From: a virus
Lineage: Duplodnaviria > Heunggongvirae > Uroviricota > Caudoviricetes
IMG/VR virus record: IMGVR_UViG_2648501787_000018
Length of the DNA: 25,110 bases
Direction: 5' to 3' (one strand)
The notes beneath the pieces are model-generated. The model did no database searches. It was not told the origin of the DNA and saw nothing but the letters and a program-made list of their open reading frames with translations. The translations under genes were made by a program, and so were the position numbers. Numbering within the stretch: the stretch's first letter is position 1; every line of letters begins with the position of its first letter. Positions 1 through 14,230 of this stretch are shown one piece after another.

Positions 1-693
1 TGTATTCCCCATTACAGGCAAACTTAACTTCATGGTATCGACCGCCGATTTAATGGCGTTCTGCGAATAGCTGATCTCCGCATCAATGAAAATCTGTGCC
101 ATAGCTCGCTGTAATTCTTTATCCTGTACTGGCTCCCATACAACGCCGTTGTAATGGTGAACAGTGTCAGAGTCAGCATGAATCGCCAGTTCACCGCCAT
201 AATGTGCCAGGAGAACTTCGCCGCGTTGACTTGCTCCCATCTGGTTAAGCGCCAGTGATGAAGCGTTATCGTCTTTTACCCGCTCTTTTTTCTTTACAGG
301 CAGTTCAACTACCTTTTTCTTTTCCGCCTGCTCTGCCCGTTCACGTTCCAGATATTCGCGCCAGTTCTCCCGTTTCTGGCTGTGCATTCCTTCAGGGTAA
401 TAATCAGCATCCCTGACACCTGCCACTGCCAGTTTCTGCCCGATGGTATTAACAAGCCCCGGACGCAATAACCCCGCCTGATAAAGACGCACGCGATAGC
501 GTCCGTCCGGTACGATTTGCAGGTTGTCCAGTTCGGCAAGTTGTTGCTCTCCAAGCCAGACAGGTGGCACGTTATCGCCAGCCAGTCGCCCGTCCTGTTC
601 CTGCCACTGTTTCGCATGTGCCCACGCATCACTACCCGCAAAAATGATGACTTCCGTCATTTTGTCACGCGGCTGGTGTTTTAAATTTGGCGC
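1..693 (-). CDS. Putative replication protein of the integrative element (P4-family primase/helicase-like), N-terminal part only; gene runs off the window start
   Basis: Minus-strand frame open from ATG at 693-691 to the window edge; absent from the ORF track because incomplete. Translation begins MKKAPNLKHQPRDKMTEVIIFAGSDAWAHAKQWQ. Residues about 165-200 (GEVLLAHYGGELAIHADSDTVHHYNGVVWEP) resemble the D5_N-type motif of P4-family primases. Assignment from memory. Confidence 0.4.
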
Positions 694-698
694 TTTTT

Positions 699-998
699 TC
701 ATTTCTGCTCTCTCCACGCGGCAATCATGTTTTTCAGTTCCTGTAGTTTTTTATCAACATCCATACATGACACATGGTTATTTCTGGAAAGCGGGATTTC
801 CCGCCTGAATCTGCTAATAAAGATCTCCACGTTCAGCGAACTATGAAATGAATAGCCATCACGAATAAAATACACACGGTCAAACATCAGTTCTTTTACC
901 GTTACTCTGTTACCGTTCTTATCCAGATAAATAGCGCCGGGGATAATTTTGGGGTGTGCATAACCGCTGGCAGTCAAGCCAGATAAATATGTTCTCAT
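699..998 (-). CDS. Hypothetical protein (99 aa), island replication/regulation operon
   Basis: Track ORF with ATG start, same strand and tight spacing with flanking genes. No recognisable motif. Confidence 0.4.
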   Translation of the reverse strand: MRTYLSGLTASGYAHPKIIPGAIYLDKNGNRVTVKELMFDRVYFIRDGYSFHSSLNVEIFISRFRREIPLSRNNHVSCMDVDKKLQELKNMIAAWREQK

Positions 999-1004
999 GA
1001 TTAT

Positions 1005-1325
1005 TTATCCCCGATTTGAATCAGTATTCGCTTTCTTTATGGCATTTAATGCATCTGTGGCATTTTCAATGGTGCACCGTAACGAAATATCAAACTGCCC
1101 AAGCATTGCCAGTAACAAACCGATATTACCCATATCAATGCGCATAGCCTTTTCGTCATAGTCCTCATTTTCTGACGCATGCCACATCAGGCTACCAATT
1201 GACGCAACAGCCATTGATATATTGTCAGTAGCCCCATCCGCAGCGGAATAAACCTTTTTAGCAATATCATGCTCACAGTTAAAATGCGGATTAATCAGGT
1301 ACTGGTAATTTGACATATCAGGCAT
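1005..1325 (-). CDS. Hypothetical protein (106 aa)
   Basis: Track ORF; its ATG (1325-1323) sits 3 nt from the upstream gene's stop (1320-1318), suggesting co-translation. No recognisable motif. Confidence 0.4.
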   Translation of the reverse strand: MPDMSNYQYLINPHFNCEHDIAKKVYSAADGATDNISMAVASIGSLMWHASENEDYDEKAMRIDMGNIGLLLAMLGQFDISLRCTIENATDALNAIKKANTDSNRG

Positions 1326-1520
1326 GGCATACCCCCTGACGAATACGGGCGGCGAATACCATCACGCAGCCAGCCGGGGATTGCTGGCGTGCTTCCTGTT
1401 CGCTGCTGGCCTCAATGGTAATCACGCGCGGTTGTGCCGTGCTCAGGGCGATAAAACGCCAGATGTATTTATTCAGGTTGTGCGAATCCCGCCCTTGCGG
1501 GTGTGTGGTATGATTTCTCA
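1318..1520 (-). CDS. Hypothetical small protein (about 67 aa)
   Basis: Internal ATG at 1520-1518 preceded by GAGG about 7 nt upstream; the longer track ORF (to 1632) has no better start signal. Function unknown. Confidence 0.35.
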
Positions 1521-1729
1521 TAGCTACCTCGATACTGTTGCTATCGTTGGTGGTTAGAAGCCCGTTGGTGTTCCTAGCACCTTCGGGCTTTGCTTTTTTA
1601 AGTGCCTCCGTGTTAAGGTGGCCACCTAACAATGAAAAGGCTAATTCAATAGGTGGTCACTTGTCAACGATCAAACGCGATAAAAGTCCTAAGGGTGATG
1701 GGCAATCTCCACAATTCAGAATGCGAATT

Positions 1730-1852
1730 TCTCCAGAGCTAAAAGAGCAATTCGACAAAGAAGCGCAGAGCGACGGCATAAGCCTAGCCAACTGGCTTAA
1801 AGAATTAGGGCGCAAAGAGCTGCTACGGCGCGGTATTGAACCAAAAGGATAA
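1730..1852 (+). CDS. Small ribbon-helix-helix-like (Arc/CopG-type) DNA-binding protein, about 40 aa; alternative TTG start at 1661
   Basis: MRISPELKEQFDKEAQSDGISLANWLKELGRKELLRRGIEPKG has an N-terminal beta-strand then two short helices typical of RHH proteins. Stop is 27 nt before the next gene. Start codon uncertain. Confidence 0.3.
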   Translation, partial: SPELKEQFDKEAQSDGISLANWLKELGRKELLRRGIEPKG

Positions 1853-1879
1853 GAATAATTGAAGTCAAGGAGCTAACAC

Positions 1880-2236
1880 ATGAAATACGAATTCTTCGCA
1901 ACAAGTAGCAGTAGTTTGGATGTATACATAGTCACTGTATCAAACGATTCTGGCTCGCTAATCATGACTTGTAATTGTCCAGCAGGAAGTAAAGGTATTC
2001 TATGTAGACACCGTAAAGCTTTAATTACCGGAAAAATCCGCGGTATATTCACTCCCCCAAGAAGGAATAATCCTGAAAAATTACAAGAAGCTATGAATTT
2101 AATAGCCACATATGGCATAGATAAAACATTAAAGTTGTACACTGATGAGTTAGAACGAGCAGAACAGACTTGGATAAGTGTTCGCGATAATTTGAGAGCA
2201 ATGATAAACGCTCTTGTTGAACCACCTAAATATTGA
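1880..2236 (+). CDS. Hypothetical protein with SWIM-type zinc-finger-like motif (CxC-x9-CxH), 118 aa
   Basis: Strong RBS (AAGGAG) about 8 nt upstream of ATG 1880; AT-rich coding sequence; motif TCNCPAGSKGILCRH matches the CxCxnCxH SWIM pattern. No family recognised beyond the motif. Confidence 0.45.
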   Translation: MKYEFFATSSSSLDVYIVTVSNDSGSLIMTCNCPAGSKGILCRHRKALITGKIRGIFTPPRRNNPEKLQEAMNLIATYGIDKTLKLYTDELERAEQTWISVRDNLRAMINALVEPPKY

Positions 2237-2308
2237 ACTGATCACATTGCCCACCAGTCACAAATGTGGCATTGTTGGTGATGCGTTCAAGTTTAGTGTA
2301 TATCCATT

Positions 2309-2338
2309 GGCGACCGCCCCAGGTCGCCTTTGTTTTGT
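2309..2338 (+). terminator. Rho-independent terminator downstream of the RHH/SWIM gene pair
   Basis: Inverted repeat GGCGACC-gcccca-GGTCGCC followed by TTTGTTTTGT. Confidence 0.4.
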
Positions 2339-2919
2339 CACTGAATGCGGTTACCAAAGTAAAACTCAGGCTGATATTCACGTATCAGCCTTTTTTCTTC
2401 TTCCTCCAGCTCACGCTTTTTGCGCTTACATGCCTGTAGCTCCCTCCCCTTCTCGCTGGCACTTATTTGATATTGCTCTTTACGGCGGGAAAAATCCTGT
2501 AATGCACCCCACGGGATACCATAAGCCCCCGTTTTTCTGATACCTGGTATCACATTCCTGAATACCCAGTTACTGAAACGATGGGCGAACGTGCCAGGAG
2601 TAACAGCTTTGCGACTTCTGGCGATCAGCTTGTAAAAACCAGATTCAGAAACGACGCTATGATTTGGATTTCCGCGAATACCGTAGCTTAAAGCGACGGT
2701 ATTCTTCTCATCCACATCCAGAGCTTTTAGAGCATCGCGTGAGTTGCTTATTTCCAGAGCTTCACAAACATCCTTTGCAACAAACCACGGATCGCCGTTC
2801 AGATACACCACACGAACATCCACGCCATCAAAGCGCAGAACGACAAGATCACGAATATCGCAGAATTTTTTTACTGAACGAGCGTACCCCTTGCCCGTCA
2901 CGGCAATATTTTTATTCAT
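2338..2919 (-). CDS. BRO-N domain protein (phage antirepressor-like)
   Basis: VRVVYLNGDPWFVAKDVCEALEISNSRDALKALDVDEK ... SGFYKLIARSRK ... FSNWVFRNVIPGIRKTGAYG matches the conserved Bro-N domain pattern. GAGG RBS 8 nt upstream of ATG 2919. Confidence 0.75.
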   Translation of the reverse strand: MNKNIAVTGKGYARSVKKFCDIRDLVVLRFDGVDVRVVYLNGDPWFVAKDVCEALEISNSRDALKALDVDEKNTVALSYGIRGNPNHSVVSESGFYKLIARSRKAVTPGTFAHRFSNWVFRNVIPGIRKTGAYGIPWGALQDFSRRKEQYQISASEKGRELQACKRKKRELEEEEKRLIREYQPEFYFGNRIQ

Positions 2920-2934
2920 CGTTTTTTACCTCAC

Positions 2935-2963
2935 ATACAAAAAACCCCGCATTGCGTGCGGGG
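2935..2963 (-). terminator. Rho-independent terminator after alpA-like gene (minus strand)
   Basis: Hairpin CCCCGC-attgcgt-GCGGGG (2945-2963); on the minus strand it is followed by TTTTTTGTATG. Confidence 0.4.
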
Positions 2964-2977
2964 TATGAAAGATATTA

Positions 2978-3181
2978 TTAGTGGGGATTGGCCTGTTCTC
3001 GTTGTTTATCTAACCATGCATCTACATCTCTACGGTGCCAGGTATGCCGCCGCCCAATTCTGAACGGTTGAGGAAAACCATTATTTTCATCTTTCCAGAA
3101 ATTGATGAATGCGCTCATTGCCCCATAGCGCAAAATTTTCATTACGTCTTTAGTAAATAAAATATCTTCATTGGTATTCAT
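2978..3181 (-). CDS. alpA: AlpA/excisionase-family HTH transcriptional regulator (67 aa)
   Basis: Small HTH protein immediately downstream of the integrase; ...GFPQPFRIGRRHTWHRRDVDAWL fits the AlpA/Xis (HTH_17) pattern FP.P.R.G.R..W...DV..WL. Confidence 0.7.
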   Translation of the reverse strand: MNTNEDILFTKDVMKILRYGAMSAFINFWKDENNGFPQPFRIGRRHTWHRRDVDAWLDKQREQANPH

Positions 3182-3193
3182 TTGCTGAACTCC

Positions 3194-4432
3194 TCAACCA
3201 TTTACTATTCTCAAACCTTTCTTACCACCGGATCTATTAATTACCCCTTTTCTCGCCTCATCAAAAAAATCTCCTACCCATTGCATCATAATTTTGCGTT
3301 GTTCTAAATAAGTAGTTCTATTATAAATATCTCTTATTTTATCACCACTTTTATGTGCTAATGCAGCCTCAATAACATCAGGGTTAAAACCCTCCTCATT
3401 TAAAAGCGTACTCCACATCGAACGAAAACCGTGTAACGTTACAATCCCTTTGAACTTGCTGGCAGCAATTGGGGTATTGATAGTATTCTTTCCCATAGGA
3501 GCATCTTTTGTTCTGGAGGAAAAAAATATATAACGCCCTCTTTTTATTTTCTGCATTGTTCTTAGGATTCTAATAGCCTGTGATGAGAGAGGCACAACAT
3601 GTTCACGATGGCATTTCATTTTATGCGCGGGGATAATCCACAAGCCAGAATCAAAATCAATCTCGGACCACTCTGCTTTAATCGCCTCACCTGGCCTGAC
3701 CATTGTCAATATCTGGAATAAAAGTGCATTGTGAGCTATTTGATACTTATGAGGCACACTATCCCACCAACTCAGAAATTCAGGCAATCTTTCAACAGGT
3801 AGTGCAGCTAATGATTTATTTTTCTTTCCTGTGAATGCAGTTTTTATCTTAAGTAATGGATTCGTTTTCAATGCTCCACAATTTACAGCGTAATTCATAA
3901 TTTCATTTAATCTTGATATTAATTTTTTTTGCAACGCATTCTTATCGGATACGGCATCCAGAGCATTAATAGCTACTGGCGCTGTAATTTTCTCTATGCT
4001 GTACTTACCAAAGAAAGGAACAAGATATTTGTATACTTCATATTCGATATTATACAGCGTAGGTTTCCGCAATTCCGATCCCTTTTTAAAAGCGATCCAT
4101 GCATTAGCAACAGCTTCAAATGTTTGTAGATTTTTTAGTGACATCTCAATTTTACGATTTTTCTTCTCTGTCACTGGATCAACTCCACGTGCAATCATTC
4201 GCCGAAGTTCATCACGTATTTCCCGTGCTTCCGCGAGTGAGAATTCAGGAAAACGCCCTATCGTGTATGTCTGCCGTTTCTTCGTTATCGGATGGCTATA
4301 ACGGAAACGCCACACTTTCCCACCAGCTTTACTCACATTCAGCAATAAACCGAACCCATCATAAACGGCATAGTCCTTTTCACGTGGTTTCATTCCCTTA
4401 ACTTCAGTCACGGTTAATGGCTTTACCGGCAT
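3194..4432 (-). CDS. int: Tyrosine site-specific integrase, P4/IntS-like
   Basis: 412 aa. N-terminal arm-binding region (KPREKDYAVYDGFGLLLNVSKAGGKVWRFRY) and C-terminal catalytic residues (HGFRSMWST ... IRDIYNRTTY) typical of P4-type integrases. Confidence 0.9.
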   Translation of the reverse strand: MPVKPLTVTEVKGMKPREKDYAVYDGFGLLLNVSKAGGKVWRFRYSHPITKKRQTYTIGRFPEFSLAEAREIRDELRRMIARGVDPVTEKKNRKIEMSLKNLQTFEAVANAWIAFKKGSELRKPTLYNIEYEVYKYLVPFFGKYSIEKITAPVAINALDAVSDKNALQKKLISRLNEIMNYAVNCGALKTNPLLKIKTAFTGKKNKSLAALPVERLPEFLSWWDSVPHKYQIAHNALLFQILTMVRPGEAIKAEWSEIDFDSGLWIIPAHKMKCHREHVVPLSSQAIRILRTMQKIKRGRYIFFSSRTKDAPMGKNTINTPIAASKFKGIVTLHGFRSMWSTLLNEEGFNPDVIEAALAHKSGDKIRDIYNRTTYLEQRKIMMQWVGDFFDEARKGVINRSGGKKGLRIVNG

Positions 4433-4593
4433 CTATCGCCCTCATTTTTTAGTCCGTCATGTAGTCCTTTCAAGTCGATAACAAGCGATAAACTAACTCA
4501 TTATCAAGTAAAGAGAGGAAACACAAAAAATCACAACTCATTGAAAAGACTACAAAACGACACCAGAACATAAAAACAGGTAAGAAATGTACC

Positions 4594-5589
4594 CTACATC
4601 CAGAATGACGCAATACGTGAGCGTCGGGGATCACCATAACGACTGCCATCCGCATTGATGGATTCACCATCCCGCAACCAGACCCCACGTCCGTTCAGCT
4701 CACGTTTTTGTTCAGGCATAATCCGTCCTGAACAGGAAGGACACTGAATATAAGCCGCCTCACTTGCCAGCACAGGATCGGCAATATCACGGAAACCAGC
4801 AACCACATCGCCGCAGGGCTGAAAATACTCACCACAGTGTGGGCAGGGCCAGTACCAGCGACGTCGATCGCCACGGTTATAGAGTGACAGTATCCCCGTG
4901 GTTGGTGGAGCCTCATGCGGTGAAGTCCGTCGCCATTTCACATCCTTCACATCCCTGCCGGGGGAACTCTCCACCAGCGTCATACCACTGGACATAAATG
5001 TGGTGGTACGTTTTGAGGCAAGAGAGAAGGCATCCCCCTCGCCATCAATATCTTCCGGAAAACGGTCATAATCCGTCAGCGCCACGCATTTATAATCTGA
5101 TGAGGACATGATATTGACTGACGGCCAGCCGATTTTCAGGTAGTTGCCAGCAAGGAATGTTCTGTCATAAACGTTGTTGTCATTTTTGTTCGGACTCAGG
5201 CGACTGACCACTTCCGGGCTGACGCGAAACGTTCTGGCAAGTCGTTTTTTGGAGTGTTCGCGGGCTTTTTCCTCCGTCATCTGAATGATCAGCATATCCG
5301 CAGGATCGCAAATCACGTTGTAAATCACCCAGCCGTCAATCAGGCCGATAGTCTTGCCGGTTCGTGCCGGACCAACAAATATCACTGCGTCGTATTCACG
5401 CGAGGCCAGGCAGTTCATCGGCTCAATAACATACGGTGCCACCAGCGGATCCCACGGGACTGAGTTCCCTGCCCCCATGGGCACCCGCATATACTGAGCA
5501 ACGGCATCAGCAACCCGCATTCGTCTCGGTGCGCGAAGGATATAACCTGAATCGGTTCGTGCTGCCTTTGCGGTTTCCTGATTCAGCAT
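4594..5589 (-). pseudogene. Terminase large subunit, GpA family, truncated to the N-terminal 331 codons
   Basis: Walker A-like GPARTGKT and zinc-finger region WPCPHCGEYFQP ... CPSCSG as in lambda gpA (about 640 aa). The frame ends at ...RIASFWM well before the nuclease domain, followed by AT-rich island sequence. Start overlaps the Nu1-like stop (TAATG). Confidence 0.65.
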
Positions 5590-6083
5590 TACTCCTCCTG
5601 CTGTAATTCCTCCTCATCATCCGCACCTGCTTCGGTCACCCGCAGGGCTATCTGATCGCGCAGATCATCAATAATGGACTGAACACGGCTCACAGCGGCA
5701 GGCTGCAGACCGCAGTCACGTTCCAGAATATCCGGTAATGTTTCCAGTACCTGCACGACCGCTTTTGCCCAGATGGCAAACTCCCGTCTGACATCACTGG
5801 CCGGAATGAGTTGTGCCGTTTCCTGTTCGAACTTAAGACGCTCACGTTCAGACTGATACCAGGCTTTGCGCTCATGCGCGTCCATTTCGCCTTCTGCAAC
5901 CGGCGGTGGTAATGCCAGAAATGCCGACACAATATCAACCACCCGATAAAGCTTGAGGTTGCTTTCATGCCCCCCTGCAACGGGTAGATTTTGCAGCCTT
6001 GCCGCAGCAGTCTGGCGATGTACACCTGACAGTGCCGCCAGTTGACTGATATTCAGCGTCAGATTTTTTAACTCTTGATCCAT
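5589..6083 (-). CDS. Terminase small subunit, Nu1-like
   Basis: 164 aa; N-terminal HTH (LNISQLAALSGVHRQTAAARLQN) and position immediately upstream of gpA as in lambda Nu1. GGAG RBS 7 nt upstream of ATG 6083. Confidence 0.8.
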   Translation of the reverse strand: MDQELKNLTLNISQLAALSGVHRQTAAARLQNLPVAGGHESNLKLYRVVDIVSAFLALPPPVAEGEMDAHERKAWYQSERERLKFEQETAQLIPASDVRREFAIWAKAVVQVLETLPDILERDCGLQPAAVSRVQSIIDDLRDQIALRVTEAGADDEEELQQEE

Positions 6084-6099
6084 ACCCGCTCCAGAATGT

Positions 6100-6285
6100 T
6101 TTAAACATGCATCTTGCGAACAACTTTAGGCAAACGGTGTTAGTGATGAACAAAAAACAATCAAAATCGACACCATAAAAATAAAACTAATGCAATATCA
6201 ATGCATTACAGTAGTGGTGATGACGAATGAAATTTCAAAAACTAGCCTTTTTCCGCGCCGCTCCCGCCCCGTGGCAGGCCACCCC
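6100..6285 (-). other. Putative cos region (cosN about 6253-6275, cosB between it and the Nu1-like start)
   Basis: About 180 bp upstream of the Nu1-like start, the minus strand reads GGGGCGGGAGCGGCGCGGAAAAAGG, resembling the lambda cosN region (GGGCGGCGACCTCGCGGGTTTTCGC), followed by an AT-rich stretch with a 7-bp inverted repeat TAATGCA/TGCATTA. Exact nick sites cannot be set from sequence. Confidence 0.45.
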
Positions 6286-6536
6286 ACCGGAAGGACCCGC
6301 CAAAATGAGAGTGATTATCACCATTGCTGATGAATAAATTGATGAAAATCATTGAAACGCCTTTCAGCAAGATAACGGCGACGGTCGTTGTTGAACTCCG
6401 TAACTCTGCTACTAAGGTTAAAAGCATGGCCATCTTTTGCCACCGGCAAATCTTCAATGGATTTCCCCTGCCGGTTTTTTATTCCTCACATTATCGCAGC
6501 CCCTCAGTGAAGGGCTGCTGTAATGCCTGCTGTTAC

Positions 6537-6920
6537 TCAGTAACGACCGCGCCTTCCGGTAATTTCATACCGGCAAATACCGGACAGCCCGGGGATCGTT
6601 ATCTGCAGCTGGTTAGCCAGGGAGTTAATCTCAGCGACCAACACTGGCTTCGTATAGCGCCATGCCGCCAGCCCTTGTCCACAGAAGCTCGCCATATCTT
6701 TTTTCTGATCAAACTCATGACACTTCATATTGAGCTGCGCACTTAAGCTGTTGCGATGCTGAAGTTCTCCGGTGAAGTAGTCATCCAGGACTTTATAGGC
6801 TGCATATTTAAATCCGGGGTTTAGCCATGCTGCATAATCATAAGCAACAAACTTCCCGCCATATGTTCCACCGTGTACACCGCGCTCAGTAAAAACCACA
6901 GATTCGTGTTTTTTCTCCAT
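6537..6920 (-). CDS. Hypothetical protein (127 aa) with KilA-N-like motif, directly downstream of Rz
   Basis: GGTYGGKFVAYDYAAWLNPGFKYAAYKVL resembles the KilA-N core (compare [25 protein letters not shown] in the 269-aa protein at 12039-12848), but the N-terminal half of the domain seems absent. Confidence 0.4.
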   Translation of the reverse strand: MEKKHESVVFTERGVHGGTYGGKFVAYDYAAWLNPGFKYAAYKVLDDYFTGELQHRNSLSAQLNMKCHEFDQKKDMASFCGQGLAAWRYTKPVLVAEINSLANQLQITIPGLSGICRYEITGRRGRY

Positions 6921-7388
6921 CTACTTAATGCGCTGGGTGCGGATATATTCCTGCGCCCCTTCCAGTTGCTTCTGCATCGTCATCAACCGTTCTCTGAGGG
7001 TGAAATAATCCCGTTCAGCGGTGTCTGCCAGTCGGGGGCTGGTTGCATTATCCATGCTGGTGGGTCCGGTGGCTTCACGCACGGCTGCGGAGCAACTGGC
7101 ATTGACCCGCAGGCGCTTACGACCAGCGGCAACATCAGCGCGCAGAGTTTCATTTTCAGTTTTCGCATCGGCTAACTCCTTCGTGTATTTTGCATCGATC
7201 GCAGCAACATCACGCTGACGCTGCTGCATGTCAGCGATGGTGGCGGTCGCCTGCTTCAGCTCACTGACTTTTTTATCACGCTGTTCTTTGTAGGCGATGG
7301 CGTTATCACGGTAATGATTAACAGCCCATGACAGGCAGGCGATGATACAAATAACCAGAGCGGAGATAATCGCGGTTACTCTGCTCAT
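6921..7388 (-). CDS. Rz: i-spanin Rz
   Basis: [16 protein letters not shown]...[13 protein letters not shown]...[16 protein letters not shown]...MQKQLEG is near-identical to lambda Rz as I recall it. Confidence 0.9.
6983..7168 (-). CDS. Rz1: o-spanin Rz1 (lipoprotein, embedded in Rz in the +1 frame)
   Basis: [22 protein letters not shown]...[32 protein letters not shown]: lipobox LVVSAC and proline-rich segment match lambda Rz1; fully nested in Rz. Confidence 0.85.
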
Positions 7389-9479: not shown

Positions 9480-9707
9480 TTACTGGCAGCGTCTGAATTT
9501 ATTCCCGTACCCGCCGTTATCCTTCGCCAGCCCCGCCAGAACTAACTGAGTCAGTATTAACTGGCACCGGGCTTCGCTTACTCCGGTAGTTCTCGTCATC
9601 ATGCGTGGCGTTACCCACTTGTCAGCAGGTAAGAAATGAAGGACTGCGGCGGCGGTTTCTGTCATATCTTGCTGTTTTAGCATGTCTTTTTCCCTTCTGG
9701 TTAACAT
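9480..9707 (-). CDS. Hypothetical small protein (75 aa or shorter)
   Basis: Track ORF between a tR'-like terminator and the methyltransferase; weak RBS; alternative starts at Met9 and Met15. Possibly HTH-like; not recognised. Confidence 0.3.
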   Translation of the reverse strand: MLTRREKDMLKQQDMTETAAAVLHFLPADKWVTPRMMTRTTGVSEARCQLILTQLVLAGLAKDNGGYGNKFRRCQ

Positions 9708-9959: not shown

Positions 9960-10577
9960 TCAATTATCTTCCAGGCCGGATGCTATCAACGAAAGTCTCT
10001 CAAAAAACGCTGTAGCAGCCTTGTCCAAAGTTGAATAAGTACTGTATTCTCCGTGTTCGGGACCAACCACTACCCATGGTCGTCTTTTTGGGATTCGGGA
10101 TTTCTCAGAAATCACTGTTCCAGATATACCAATATCAATTGTTACACCTGTTATTATTTTCTCTTCATCTCTTTCCCTGAACTCAATTGCCATAAATGCC
10201 GTTTTTTTTCGTTTCCCGTTTTTAAAAAAATCAAATAAAGCAAAGCGATGCTCATTAAAATCAACACCCCATCGTCCTTCAGGATAAAGGGCATGAAAGT
10301 TGTCATTTACGCTCTGCATCGTCTCATAAGCTTTAACTTCTAAATCTCCATAGTGCATAGATACCGCGCAGGAGTTACTGGGTAACTGTATTTTCCCAAG
10401 ATTGAAAACCTTTACTGCTCCAGAACTATGGCATCTTGCCCGCAACTTATCCCCATTTATACTAATCGGAGAAATATTCCTTAATGTTCCGGGCTGGCTC
10501 CCTCCTAAGTAAACGACTGTTAAAGATTGCTTATTTTCAATTGCATCAACTAATACATGCTCTACATTTTTATCCAT
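9960..10577 (-). CDS. Hypothetical protein (about 205 aa) with WYL-like N-terminal motif; AT-rich moron between Q and the lysis genes
   Basis: Best start is ATG 10577-10575 with GGGAGG 6 nt upstream; the track's upstream ATG at 10604 lacks an RBS. LTVVYLGGSQPGTLRNISPISINGDKLRARCHSSGAVKVFNLGKIQL resembles the WYL-domain pattern (Y...R.i.P..l....a.c....F.L..I). C-terminal 120 aa unrecognised. Confidence 0.5.
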   Translation of the reverse strand: MDKNVEHVLVDAIENKQSLTVVYLGGSQPGTLRNISPISINGDKLRARCHSSGAVKVFNLGKIQLPSNSCAVSMHYGDLEVKAYETMQSVNDNFHALYPEGRWGVDFNEHRFALFDFFKNGKRKKTAFMAIEFRERDEEKIITGVTIDIGISGTVISEKSRIPKRRPWVVVGPEHGEYSTYSTLDKAATAFFERLSLIASGLEDN

Positions 10578-10652
10578 AATAACCTCCCAATGAACAGGTA
10601 TCATCAGGAGGTTATTATAAAATATGATTATTTACTTTGATTGAATTTATTA
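10578..10652 (-). promoter_or_regulatory. Putative late promoter (pR'-like) region immediately downstream of Q
   Basis: Minus strand contains TATAAT with an upstream TTCAAT at about 20 bp spacing; position matches lambda pR'. Not a strong consensus. Confidence 0.3.
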
Positions 10653-12038: not shown

Positions 12039-12848
12039 TCAATGAACGGTATCGAGCAGCTTTAACAGCTCAGGGAACCGGGATTCGAAGAAATGCGGCT
12101 GCGTCTCGCGCGGATTTGCGGGACTGGTGATGTTCTTGCCGAACATGCAGCCTTTCGCTGTCAGCGACCAGAATTTTTTGATGTTGTTAATCGCAGTGCG
12201 GCTGTATCGTTCACGTTGTTCAACGATCCCCAGCTTCGCCATCTGGTGATATGCCTGATTAGCTGTCAGGCGGATACCATACTGCTTCAGCAGTGCACTC
12301 AGTGACAGCGTGGGGCGGCTTGAGCCATCAGGCGCGTCAGCAGGAGCATCAATGGCATAGCGCGGTGCCAGATTCGGTAAGCCAACAGCCTCCTGGAGTT
12401 TCTGACAGGCACCAAGCACTGAAGAGTTAGACAGGTTTAATTCCCGGCGCATAAAGTCCAGCAGAATCACACCAGCCTGCATCTTGTCAGCAGCCTGTCC
12501 GGATAATTTTTCCGGTGCGCTGGTTACCATGTCGAAAGTACGGATCACCTTCAGATGGAATGACGGGCTGATCCACATTGCATAGGCATACACCAGTTCC
12601 TTGCAGACATACGTTCCCCGTTCATTTCCCCCATGAATCACACTCACCGGGTCAACACCCAAATTCTGGGTGTTGGTCAATTCATGAACAAGCTCAACAG
12701 TTTGTTGGCTGGAAAGAAACTTTCCTGGCTCCTTGGTTCTGGCATTTGCACCAGATGCTACTGCTGCGCGATGCAGATCGTTCAGGCTGTAACGCCCATA
12801 AGCATCACGACGAACTTCAATACCATCAATGACCATCAGATTATTCAT
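12039..12848 (-). CDS. KilA-N domain protein (antirepressor-like)
   Basis: N-terminal 105 aa with GGNERGTYVCKELVYAYAMWISPSFHLKVIRTF is a clear KilA-N signature. GAGGAG RBS upstream of ATG 12848. Confidence 0.75.
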   Translation of the reverse strand: MNNLMVIDGIEVRRDAYGRYSLNDLHRAAVASGANARTKEPGKFLSSQQTVELVHELTNTQNLGVDPVSVIHGGNERGTYVCKELVYAYAMWISPSFHLKVIRTFDMVTSAPEKLSGQAADKMQAGVILLDFMRRELNLSNSSVLGACQKLQEAVGLPNLAPRYAIDAPADAPDGSSRPTLSLSALLKQYGIRLTANQAYHQMAKLGIVEQRERYSRTAINNIKKFWSLTAKGCMFGKNITSPANPRETQPHFFESRFPELLKLLDTVH

Positions 12849-12867
12849 ACTTCGTTTCTCCTCTTAA

Positions 12868-13257
12868 TCAGGCGGCTGCACCCGCCGTTTTCTCGTACTT
12901 ACTGATAGTGATCTCGACCTTCCCTTTCGGGATAACCGGTCCCCACTCCACCAGCATTCTTTTCACCTGTCTGTCGTCTTCCCACACACCCGCGTGGGTC
13001 AGGGCGTCAAACAGCGCCTTGTTATAGTTGTCCAGATCACGGATCCGGTTATCCGGCGGAAACAACACGATCTCCACTGAAGCAGGTGCCGACGTTGGTT
13101 TCGGCAGACGACGTAACTGCTCAACTATTGCTGCGCACGCCGCGCTCTGAAATTTTCGCCCCGCCTCGCTTATCAGGCTCTTACCAGCAAATGCCCCTTT
13201 GTTGGGGTGTCGCCAGTACGTGTTCACACTGGGCGGGAAAGGAAGGATCAACTTCAT
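12868..13257 (-). CDS. rusA: Holliday-junction resolvase RusA
   Basis: 129 aa; LPFPPSVNTYWRH ... RDLDNYNKALFDALTHAGVWEDDRQV matches the RusA family. Start overlaps upstream stop (ATGA). Confidence 0.85.
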   Translation of the reverse strand: MKLILPFPPSVNTYWRHPNKGAFAGKSLISEAGRKFQSAACAAIVEQLRRLPKPTSAPASVEIVLFPPDNRIRDLDNYNKALFDALTHAGVWEDDRQVKRMLVEWGPVIPKGKVEITISKYEKTAGAAA

Positions 13258-13580: not shown

Positions 13581-14230
13581 GCCGCCATCTCCCTGACAAG
13601 TTTTTCTGCCTGCTGGCGAACCTGCGCCAGAAACGCCTCACCACATGCCTCAAGTTCATCGCGCCCGATGTAGCTGATTGCCGGTCCCTTCCAGGTCTTG
13701 TCGAAAACAGCAATAGCACCAGCGAAGAAAGCGCCTGTCGGCACCTGCTTCTCGTCCTTCGGGATAAACCAGGCTGGCAGTTCAAAACCAATACGCCCGC
13801 GAATAAAAGCAATATGGTCTGCATCTTCCGGCCACCACACTTCGCTGGTGGCAGCTTTGATCAGGAAAACATAGCGCCCGCCTTTATCACGCATAGCACT
13901 GGCATGTTTCATGATGTAACGCATGCCGGTGATGTATTGCCCCTCATGCTGACTGGCGCGGCTGTACGGGGGATTACCAAAGGCAGCACCTTTAAGCTCC
14001 GCAAGACGTTCTGACCAGTCATGCGCCAGCGCGTTGTCTTCCGCAGTGTAATAAGCGGCACATTTGGCGTTATCACCATCAGTAAACAGATCCAGAACAA
14101 ACGGGCCAAACAGGGTGTTAATTCCCCAGAAAATGTTGTCCGGCGTGCGCCACTGATCGCCCACTTCCTTCAGTTCATGGGCTGGTTTGTTCCGCAACTC
14201 CACCAGCGCCTGGCAATATTTATTACTCAT
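13577..14230 (-). CDS. Phage N6-adenine DNA methyltransferase (phage Dam family)
   Basis: DQWRTPDNIF ... AFGNPPYS motifs. ATG at 14230-14228 overlaps the upstream stop (TAATG); the track's longer start at 14263 would overlap the upstream gene. Confidence 0.8.
   Translation of the reverse strand: MSNKYCQALVELRNKPAHELKEVGDQWRTPDNIFWGINTLFGPFVLDLFTDGDNAKCAAYYTAEDNALAHDWSERLAELKGAAFGNPPYSRASQHEGQYITGMRYIMKHASAMRDKGGRYVFLIKAATSEVWWPEDADHIAFIRGRIGFELPAWFIPKDEKQVPTGAFFAGAIAVFDKTWKGPAISYIGRDELEACGEAFLAQVRQQAEKLVREMAA

Follow-up and report, generated by a model that had tools for sequence, protein, structure and literature searches.

How does the large terminase gene of a prophage come to stop short beside an integrase gene, and does a prophage carrying such a gene have to be regarded as dead? 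The question is posed by a stretch of 25,110 nucleotides from a virus of the Caudoviricetes (IMG/VR record IMGVR_UViG_2648501787_000018; the whole stretch is called the window below), in which a gpA-family terL gene, read on the minus strand, breaks off next to an AT-rich region leading into the gene of a P4-like tyrosine integrase (Int). A preliminary description of this DNA, made from its letters alone, offered two explanations, the insertion of an integrative element into the packaging gene or a deletion fusing two adjacent elements, and held the prophage to be packaging-defective either way. As judged from alignment with related genomes, the island is a site-specific insertion into terL and not a deletion. 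With a probability that we put at about 0.8, window positions 1–4603 represent the int-proximal part of a satellite of ~10–11 kb, of the phage-inducible chromosomal island (PICI) type, lying inside its helper prophage. That an island sits in a packaging gene had been recognized in the preliminary description; its probable identity as a phage satellite inside its helper had been missed.

The terL junction and its empty site

The 5′ fragment of the gpA-type terL gene of the helper prophage occupies positions 5589..4594 on the minus strand and consists of 331 codons, ended by a TAG stop at 4594–4596. A gpA-type large terminase comprises two domains (PF05876 and PF20454); the open reading frame (ORF) in the window holds the ATPase part alone, with a match to Pfam GpA_ATPase (residues 41–304, E 1.5e-72) and without the nuclease domain. 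All of its residues (331/331) are the same as those of the N-terminal part of the intact 700-amino-acid (aa) TerL of Escherichia coli E189, so the fragment is a clean truncation with no frameshift. A full-length terminase that would reappear once a frameshift was resolved, which would have spoken against an interrupted gene, was not borne out: this identity, together with a stop placed exactly at the junction, rules out a frameshift as the cause of the short terL. As described before, the frame ends where the sequence turns into the AT-rich arm upstream of the integrase gene. This segment (4433..4590, 158 bp), conserved with the islands of E. coli C6 and O157, comprises the island-side att arm (P′ arm) and the int leader, and its G+C fraction is 0.348 (terL fragment, 0.533). 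The int leader contains a weak sigma-70-like match (4473 to 4444, minus strand). The earlier statement that no tRNA-like sequence lies at the junction extends to the whole window, anywhere in which ARAGORN found neither a tRNA nor a tmRNA gene.

Comparison with relatives carrying an intact gpA gene, which the preliminary description had recommended, placed the breakpoint at 4591/4592 and revealed a direct repeat, ACCCT[A/C]CATCCAR, at both ends of the island in its close relatives. The uninterrupted terL of E189 serves as the empty site. A junction probe was matched by 1392 complete E. coli genomes, most of them on the terL side only; apart from a few island-side matches, all start only at window position 4591/4592 and run rightwards, and thus the breakpoint is sharp. 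E. coli C6 has the same int-side junction (98.9% identity), and its missing terL 3′ half is found ~11.3 kb further on, annotated as 'terminase gpA endonuclease subunit, missing N-terminus' and followed by portal, protease-capsid, and tail genes. The int-side junction is also the same in O157:H7 146N4, where the terL 3′ half, the portal gene, and head genes lie just past the island. The complete islands measure 11,292 bp in C6 and 10,347 bp in O157:H7 146N4. The far end of the window island lies past position 1, and the second junction was read only in these relatives, which are 97–99% identical to it. None of the complete E. coli genomes covers at least 80% of the window, which is a mosaic relative of several strains.

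When the empty site and both junctions are aligned, the repeat borders the island on either side; its last base is G in C6 and A in the O157 Stx1a prophage, at both junctions in each case. In the window, the identity block ACCCTACATCCAG occupies the int-side junction (attL) at 4591..4603. Position 4596 is A in the window, whereas both the empty site and the far-side junction have C, which marks this base as island-derived, and it is this base that creates the TAG ending the terL fragment. The 7-mer that follows at 4597..4603, CATCCAG (coding strand CTGGATG, codons W330–M331), is common to both junctions, with flanks that differ between them (A versus C at 4596, AATGACG versus GAAGAAG from 4604 onward); in the O157 Stx1a prophage, it is CATCCAA at both junctions. 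Because the bases on both sides differ, strand exchange most likely takes place within the 7-bp overlap CATCCAR (coding strand YTGGATG) deduced from these alignments. In gpA-type TerL, the site falls where the ATPase domain gives way to the nuclease domain.

Removal of the island in silico gives a TerL ORF of 700 aa in C6, with both GpA_ATPase (41–304) and GpA_nuclease (326–644), and one of 707 aa in the O157:H7 Stx1a prophage. The restored terL junction is expected to contain TTCTGGATGGAGGGTCC and GCAAGTTTCTGGATGGAGGGTCCGGC, and the excised circle is predicted to carry the attP junction GAAATGTACCCTACATCCAGGAAGAAGTAAAT, the core of which agrees with the terL sequence at 12 of 13 positions. 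No replacement for the terL 3′ end is supplied at the junction, so that terL is split for as long as the satellite is integrated.

The integrase gene with its leader is present in 90 of 5426 complete E. coli genomes, at 98 places; several of these genomes (e.g., O111:H8 8E and ERL06-2442) have two int-attL copies, which presumably sit in two prophages. Carriers include Shiga toxin-producing E. coli (STEC) of the types O157:H7, O121, O111, O145, O103, and O45, as well as strains UK_Dog_Liverpool and EBJ001, the Int of which is 100% identical to that of the window, and terL is annotated directly beside int in 58 of the 60 int-bearing genomes sampled. Among IMG/VR loci with an Int at least 76% identical, 36 of 38 follow a GpA fragment, mostly ending in ...SRIASFWM, and these fragments belong to at least five diverged TerL alleles (72–100% aa identity to each other). 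In Salmonella enterica, a 75%-identical integrase is found at the same junction, TTCTGGATGTAGGGT. These occurrences point to repeated independent integrations into a conserved motif, and not to one inherited accident. Two IMG/VR loci (L114 and L122) have an integrase 97–99% identical and no terL fragment upstream, and may be rearranged or off-target copies. In three others (L127, L130, and L139; junction ~3840), the TAG is missing at the junction and the frame of the terL fragment extends ~20 codons into the island arm.

The probable satellite and its helper

Satellites in such a position have been described by Tommasini, Mageeney and Williams (2023), who reported PICIs that lie inside prophage late genes, co-oriented with them, and named them helper-embedded PICIs (HE-PICIs), with Eco567.11capE (11capE) as the founder (PMC10111431). 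The window integrase (4432..3194, minus strand, 412 aa) is of the P4/CP4-57 type: it has an arm-binding N-terminal domain, a central domain, and a catalytic R-K-H-R-H-Y domain (Pfam Arm-DNA-bind_3, Phage_int_M, and Phage_integrase), and its attP has doubled arm repeats. The catalytic residues R246, K273, H334, R337, H360, and Y370 are invariant across the alignment of its clade. The P4-type assignment in the preliminary description agrees with 33% identity to P4 Int over the full length (208 bits) and with a match to NCBIfam PRK09692 over residues 3–410, the score of which, 324.5 bits, is below the curated family cutoff of 434. Identity to the 11capE Int is 25% (85 bits), and the 11capE Int is itself 25% identical to P4 Int (69 bits); the window integrase is thus nearer to P4 Int. 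The INPHARED phage records contain none with this integrase, the best match being 39.5% identical.

The doubled arm-type motif GGACTA, with 12-bp spacing (GGACTAcatgacGGACTA), lies at 4450..4467 on the minus strand and is the sole match in the window, with 0.02 expected by chance. The other attP arm carries a G[G/T]ACTA pair, and in the attP rebuilt from C6 the pairs stand at −82/−70 and +136/+148 from the core, the same geometry as that of the annotated arm repeats of P4 attP. A GGACTA-type motif was found upstream of int in most members of the integrase clade checked, and also in a relative located at tRNA-Pro. The published HE-PICI arm motif, TGTATTGC, was not found near att; its single match in the window is at 13933.

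The gene order reported in the preliminary description, with int followed by alpA, a BRO-N gene, an opposite-strand pair, and a primase-like gene, was found to be present in full by Pfam and PHROG searches. The alpA-like gene for an excisionase/transcriptional regulator (3181..2978, minus strand, 67 aa; phrog_66, E 1.4e-6; Pfam HTH_17 weak and below cutoff) follows int directly, as in Gram-negative PICIs (PMC10111431). Just after it, a pattern search matched a terminator-like GC-rich hairpin with a T-run (2964..2944, minus strand; 8 pairs, 6 of them G–C); without antitermination of the polymerase, it could set int-alpA apart from the remainder of the island. The BRO-N gene (2919..2338, minus strand; Pfam Bro-N, E 1.7e-18; phrog_2593 anti-repressor, E 2.4e-83) is anti-repressor-like and marks the 'Bro zone'. 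The pair on the plus strand consists of a small Arc/HicB-like ORF of uncertain start (1538..1852; Pfam/PHROG domain match) and a 118-aa SWIM-finger ORF (1880..2236; Pfam SWIM; phrog_13130, function unknown). The segment 1598–2236, which holds the SWIM ORF, is unmatched in the C6 island, ~98% identical otherwise, and looks like variable cargo of the Bro zone. On the minus strand, the replication zone begins with an Icd-like ORF, annotated after C6 in RefSeq (longest ORF 1632..1318; the RefSeq start maps to ~1521), a hypothetical ORF (1325..1005), and a DUF4222 ORF (998..699). The primase gene comes next (702..1); only its 5′ part is present, as it runs off the window, and it is 68% identical in its N-terminal part to the 11capE primase.

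In the complete relatives, the order is int, alpA-type helix-turn-helix (HTH) gene, BRO-N, YlcI/YnfO, Icd-like, hypothetical, DUF4222, primase, hypothetical, single-stranded DNA-binding protein (SSB), and a ClpP-like protease/major-capsid fusion; the C6 island additionally holds a DUF1441 TerS homologue. Their RefSeq annotation lists no lysis genes, and tail-related entries in C6 are limited to a gene fragment and a 'tail assembly protein'. The layout has four zones, of which Integration, Bro, and Replication are in the window, while the Late zone, with SSB, the protease-capsid fusion, the TerS homologue (C6), and cos-like copies, is seen only in the 97–99% identical C6 and O157 islands. The terS gene, the terL fragment, int, alpA, the BRO-N gene, and the primase gene are all on the minus strand and thus co-oriented, as are almost all window genes from ~18 kb leftwards.

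On the helper side, the small terminase gene of the DUF1441 family (6083..5589, minus strand; Pfam E 2.7e-41; phrog_141, E 5.4e-74) overlaps the start of the terL ORF (5589..4594). A G-rich element of ~75 bp that lies upstream of terS (~6215..6300, GGGTCCTCCCGGTGGGGTGGCCTGCCACGGGGCGGGAGCGGCGCGGAAAAAGGC), located by blastn and alignment, is the candidate helper cos. It occurs twice in each related island (L001, ~9500–9606 and 12821–12892; L003, 11863–11952 and 14324–14489), in variants that track the helper type (window/C6-type versus Stx1-type), and from its sequence it is likely a cos region copied by the satellite. Such tracking is as expected for a satellite that would be packaged via a helper-matched cos. 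In O157:H7 146N4 (L003, 9938–30843), the split terL is a late-operon gene of an Stx1a prophage, with Q, stxA1a/stxB1a, lysis genes, terS, the terL 5′ fragment, the island, the terL 3′ half, and portal in this order on one strand. In this strain, excision of the satellite may condition the production of Stx1 phage particles. Elsewhere in the window, a 214-aa ORF (9960–10604, minus strand; phrog_8498, unknown function) sits in a low-GC patch (0.38–0.40) between the Q antiterminator gene and a late-region DNA methyltransferase gene; this is a moron-like place, occupied by other genes in C6 and E189.

Packaging gate or dead end

What does the split mean for the helper? HE-PICIs bring no replacement sequence, so that the late gene becomes whole again only once the satellite is excised. 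In the case of 11capE, quantitative PCR and sequencing showed that the whole composite excises and replicates first and that the satellite leaves at ~2 h (PMC10111431). In the present case, the sequence shows that a P4/CP4-57-type Int has recombined the satellite into the deduced 7-bp overlap CATCCAR of terL, in the orientation of the helper late operon. By analogy with 11capE and with lambdoid late regulation, it is proposed that Q-dependent late transcription, once the helper is induced, would pass from the lysis genes via terS and the 5′ fragment of terL into int-alpA. Such read-through is plausible because the genes are co-oriented and a consensus scan found no terminator-like site from terS to int, including the interval between the terL stop and the int start. 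Next, following the 11capE precedent, precise excision by Int and the AlpA-type excisionase would make terL whole again, the satellite would replicate with its own primase, and the helper terminase would package it via helper-matched cos-like sites, with helper packaging blocked until the satellite has left. The split of terL is therefore not sufficient to call the prophage packaging-defective either way: a split made by a tyrosine recombinase is reversible in principle, and in 11capE the late gene is restored by excision (PMC10111431). On this analogy, a conditional gate, reversible in principle, is likelier than a dead prophage.

Several observations weigh against the reading as a satellite with its own excision and transfer. 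The window does not reach the far junction of this island, the state of which is taken from relatives only. Excision, replication, and packaging are transferred to this lineage from 11capE only, and the 11capE study itself recovered no virions, so that transfer is unproven even for the founder (PMC10111431). The terminator-like hairpin after alpA, a pattern in the sequence, may limit how far read-through extends. No Rfam family for a P4-type immunity RNA (C4, isrK) matched window positions 1–7000 at E ≤ 0.1. Finally, a search of IMG/VR and of JGI metagenome contigs for the exact attP junction gave no match, a result that is uninformative on excision.

Of the other explanations, the one that survives best is that the island entered terL and no longer excises, so that a decaying, packaging-dead prophage and a stranded island are left. 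Many STEC prophages are defective (PMC2669165), many HE-PICI helpers look truncated according to Tommasini et al. (PMC10111431), two IMG/VR loci are without the terL fragment, and the missing attP junction in the two public contig collections also agrees with it. However, the integrase is full length with conserved catalytic residues, the terL fragment is identical to an intact allele over its whole length, and in two different helpers the terL halves can be joined to give intact ORFs. In addition, near-identical integrases interrupt five or more diverged TerL alleles and occur in Salmonella too, which argues for repeated and recent integration. A dead-end insertion is thus unlikely, though it deserves more weight than the explanations that follow.

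An island normally found at a tRNA or tmRNA gene could also have integrated here off target, at a secondary site. The nearest species-representative relatives of the integrase (34–41% identical) do use tRNA/tmRNA sites, in 49 of 52 cases checked, and off-target events are documented for HE-PICIs (PMC10111431). This is nevertheless very improbable, since the sampled E. coli copies (58/60) and the IMG/VR copies (36/38) are in terL at the same codon, no inspected locus lies beside a tRNA gene, and the attP core equals terL at all but one of 13 positions. A deletion or rearrangement that joined a P4-like island of the chromosome to an adjacent prophage, with loss of the terL 3′ half, would suit the single junction visible within the window alone, but it has hardly any probability left, as the relatives have the terL 3′ half directly past the island, share the att repeat, and regain the frame exactly, the junction is found again across prophages, serotypes, and genera, and no tRNA is nearby. 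Of the two explanations offered at the outset, insertion stands and deletion falls on the same data, namely the terL 3′ halves past the islands of C6 and O157, the direct repeat, and the restored ORFs.

If the satellite reading holds, an annotation of the kind 'truncated terminase plus stray integrase' should not be taken as prophage decay, and tools that score prophage completeness will misjudge such composites. In STEC, a satellite that gates the terminase of its helper prophage would thereby also control Stx phage release. For at least one O157:H7 strain, this concerns the terminase gene of an Stx1a prophage, where excision could set the timing or yield of toxin-phage particles.

An integrase clade at prophage late genes, and known systems

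Is this integrase a single oddity? In contigs of one genome per species, the nearest relatives (34–41% identical) have, in the 49 of 52 cases mentioned, a co-oriented tRNA or tmRNA gene ending ~190–420 bp upstream. Closer relatives, at 44–96% identity, come from a large protein collection and belong to Enterobacterales, with hosts including Escherichia, Salmonella, Klebsiella, Raoultella, Enterobacter, Pantoea, and Providencia. Twelve clusters of them had genomic context, eight further clade clusters being left out, and in all 12 the integrase gene follows a prophage late ORF of the same orientation at a distance of 114–241 nt, none of these loci containing a tRNA gene. One step further out, the relative P0071 (41%) adjoins tRNA-Pro.

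The targets cover three TerL families (gpA, Terminase_1, and Terminase_6) and capsid, protease-capsid, portal-region, and tail genes. The gpA TerL gene is the target of the window cluster, of Salmonella P0004, and of Klebsiella P0020, the last in an Nu1-type phage and ~three codons further on. Other TerL targets are a Terminase_6N-only TerL (Pantoea P0053) and a Terminase_1-like N-terminal fragment after a Terminase_2 TerS (E. coli P0035). Head genes are represented by a Peptidase_S78 protease-capsid gene (Salmonella P0009), a major capsid gene of PF09950, interrupted at position 65 of the 251 in the profile (Raoultella P0044), a position after a DUF2213 head gene (E. coli P0042), and a position after the portal gene (Pantoea P0060), and three clusters (P0014, P0051, and P0058) are at tail or baseplate positions. 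In IMG/VR, recurrent copies were found at four sites, namely gpA terL, the DUF2213 head-gene position, the PF09950 capsid gene, and a baseplate position. In one locus from Klebsiella quasipneumoniae (L097, junction ~4850), a 55%-identical integrase sits in an Nu1-type gpA terminase gene reading …HIWSAY/LGSL and stop, ~three codons downstream of the homologous position, so that two subclades with different core sequences use almost the same place in TerL.

The late-gene set was monophyletic in 187 of 200 neighbour-joining (NJ) bootstraps against tRNA/tmRNA-type integrases and P4, and in the NJ tree it is nested among the tRNA/tmRNA-type integrases. Every clade member tested scored at most 92 bits against the 11capE Int. 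The published survey of HE-PICIs, seeded with a single integrase, gathered those of at least 400 bits against the 11capE Int and reported that they form one clade, the attP of which has TGTATTGC in doubled form at −81 and +132; its authors predicted further HE-PICIs (PMC10111431). Within the limits of the loci sampled, there is apparently a second integrase lineage, independent of the published HE-PICI clade and repeatedly retargeted to prophage late genes. The more far-reaching proposal, that a second helper-embedded lineage evolved independently when a P4/CP4-57-type clade with tRNA/tmRNA-targeting ancestors was retargeted again and again to late genes, has in our view roughly even odds; it has to be held against it that the clade is drawn from 12 clusters, the IMG/VR loci, and an NJ tree, which is not an exhaustive survey. 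If it is true, and the second integrase clade is unrelated to the first, life inside the helper late operon evolved more than once. Late-gene tropism would then be a convergent satellite strategy and not a peculiarity of one integrase clade, and the clade would offer a comparative system for the retargeting of integrases from tRNA genes to phage genes.

A literature search on terminase interruption, Stx prophages with integrative elements, and embedded satellites, made outside subscription-only literature, returned only the 2023 paper and the papers citing it, and none that describes the second integrase lineage. In the O157 Sakai prophages, the terminases are reported as intact except for one nu1 disrupted by an insertion sequence (PMC2669165). 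The closest known system is that of the HE-PICIs. As in these, the satellite lies in a late gene of a lambdoid prophage, co-oriented with it, and splits the gene without replacement sequence. The zone order Int/AlpA, Bro, Replication, and Late is collinear with that of 11capE, down to the 68% identity in the N-terminal part of the primase; the related islands have their own capsid-family gene and a cos-like sequence, and attP has doubled arm motifs with 12-bp spacing at about −80 and +135/140. However, the integrase, 25% identical (85 bits) to the 11capE Int, falls outside the HE-PICI clade and groups with the P4/CP4-57 type, and its arm motif in the equivalent positions is GGACTA instead of TGTATTGC. 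The target differs as well, being a gpA-family TerL at the start of GpA_nuclease, whereas the published gene-A sites are Terminase_1:132/245/246. Neither the GpA-family site nor this att core is in the two complete HE-PICI att files, and in the available part of the published list of 14 HE-PICI late-gene sites no gpA-type target was found.

The Gram-negative PICIs of the EcCICFT073 type (Fillol-Salom et al., 2018; PMC6092414) share the order int-alpA-replication-late in one direction, the length of ~10–15 kb, the lambdoid cos-type helper, and the lack of lysis and tail genes (in RefSeq annotation, and setting aside the C6 tail fragment and 'tail assembly protein'). In contrast to the present satellite, which lies inside the helper terL, these PICIs occupy chromosomal sites and act on the helper in trans. 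A PICI of the O-island 51/EcCICFT073 type was considered and set aside, as its sites are chromosomal and the integrase discussed here occurs in only 90 of 5426 genomes. With P4, the element shares the integrase family, the doubled 12-bp arm repeats of attP, an Icd-like ORF, and a small HTH protein of the AlpA/Vis type; it differs in its 11capE-type primase, in targeting a prophage gene and not tRNA-Leu, and in a helper that is lambdoid and not P2-like. The P4 core genes psu, sid, delta, epsilon, and alpha were found neither in the window (Pfam, PHROGs) nor in the RefSeq annotation of the related islands, and with no psu, sid, or delta annotated the element is not P4-like in its hijacking genes. 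The capsid-family gene, a ClpP-like protease/major capsid protein fusion, and the TerS homologue of C6 recall the capsid-forming PICIs (cf-PICIs). Unlike in these, no portal, TerL, or head-tail connector genes are annotated in the related islands (RefSeq annotation only), so that on this annotation the element is not a cf-PICI and would be unable to build a capsid-packaging set of its own.

A last comparison is with active lysogeny, or regulated gene integrity, as in phi10403S in Listeria comK and the skin element in Bacillus subtilis sigK. There, too, an element splits a gene, and its precise excision restores the gene at a defined time (elements of this type are discussed in PMC7192596). The satellite differs in that the split gene belongs to the helper phage and the presumed beneficiary is the satellite and not the host cell. 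The embedding of a satellite in its helper is itself already published, as HE-PICI; what differs here is the P4/CP4-57-type integrase lineage and the gpA target.

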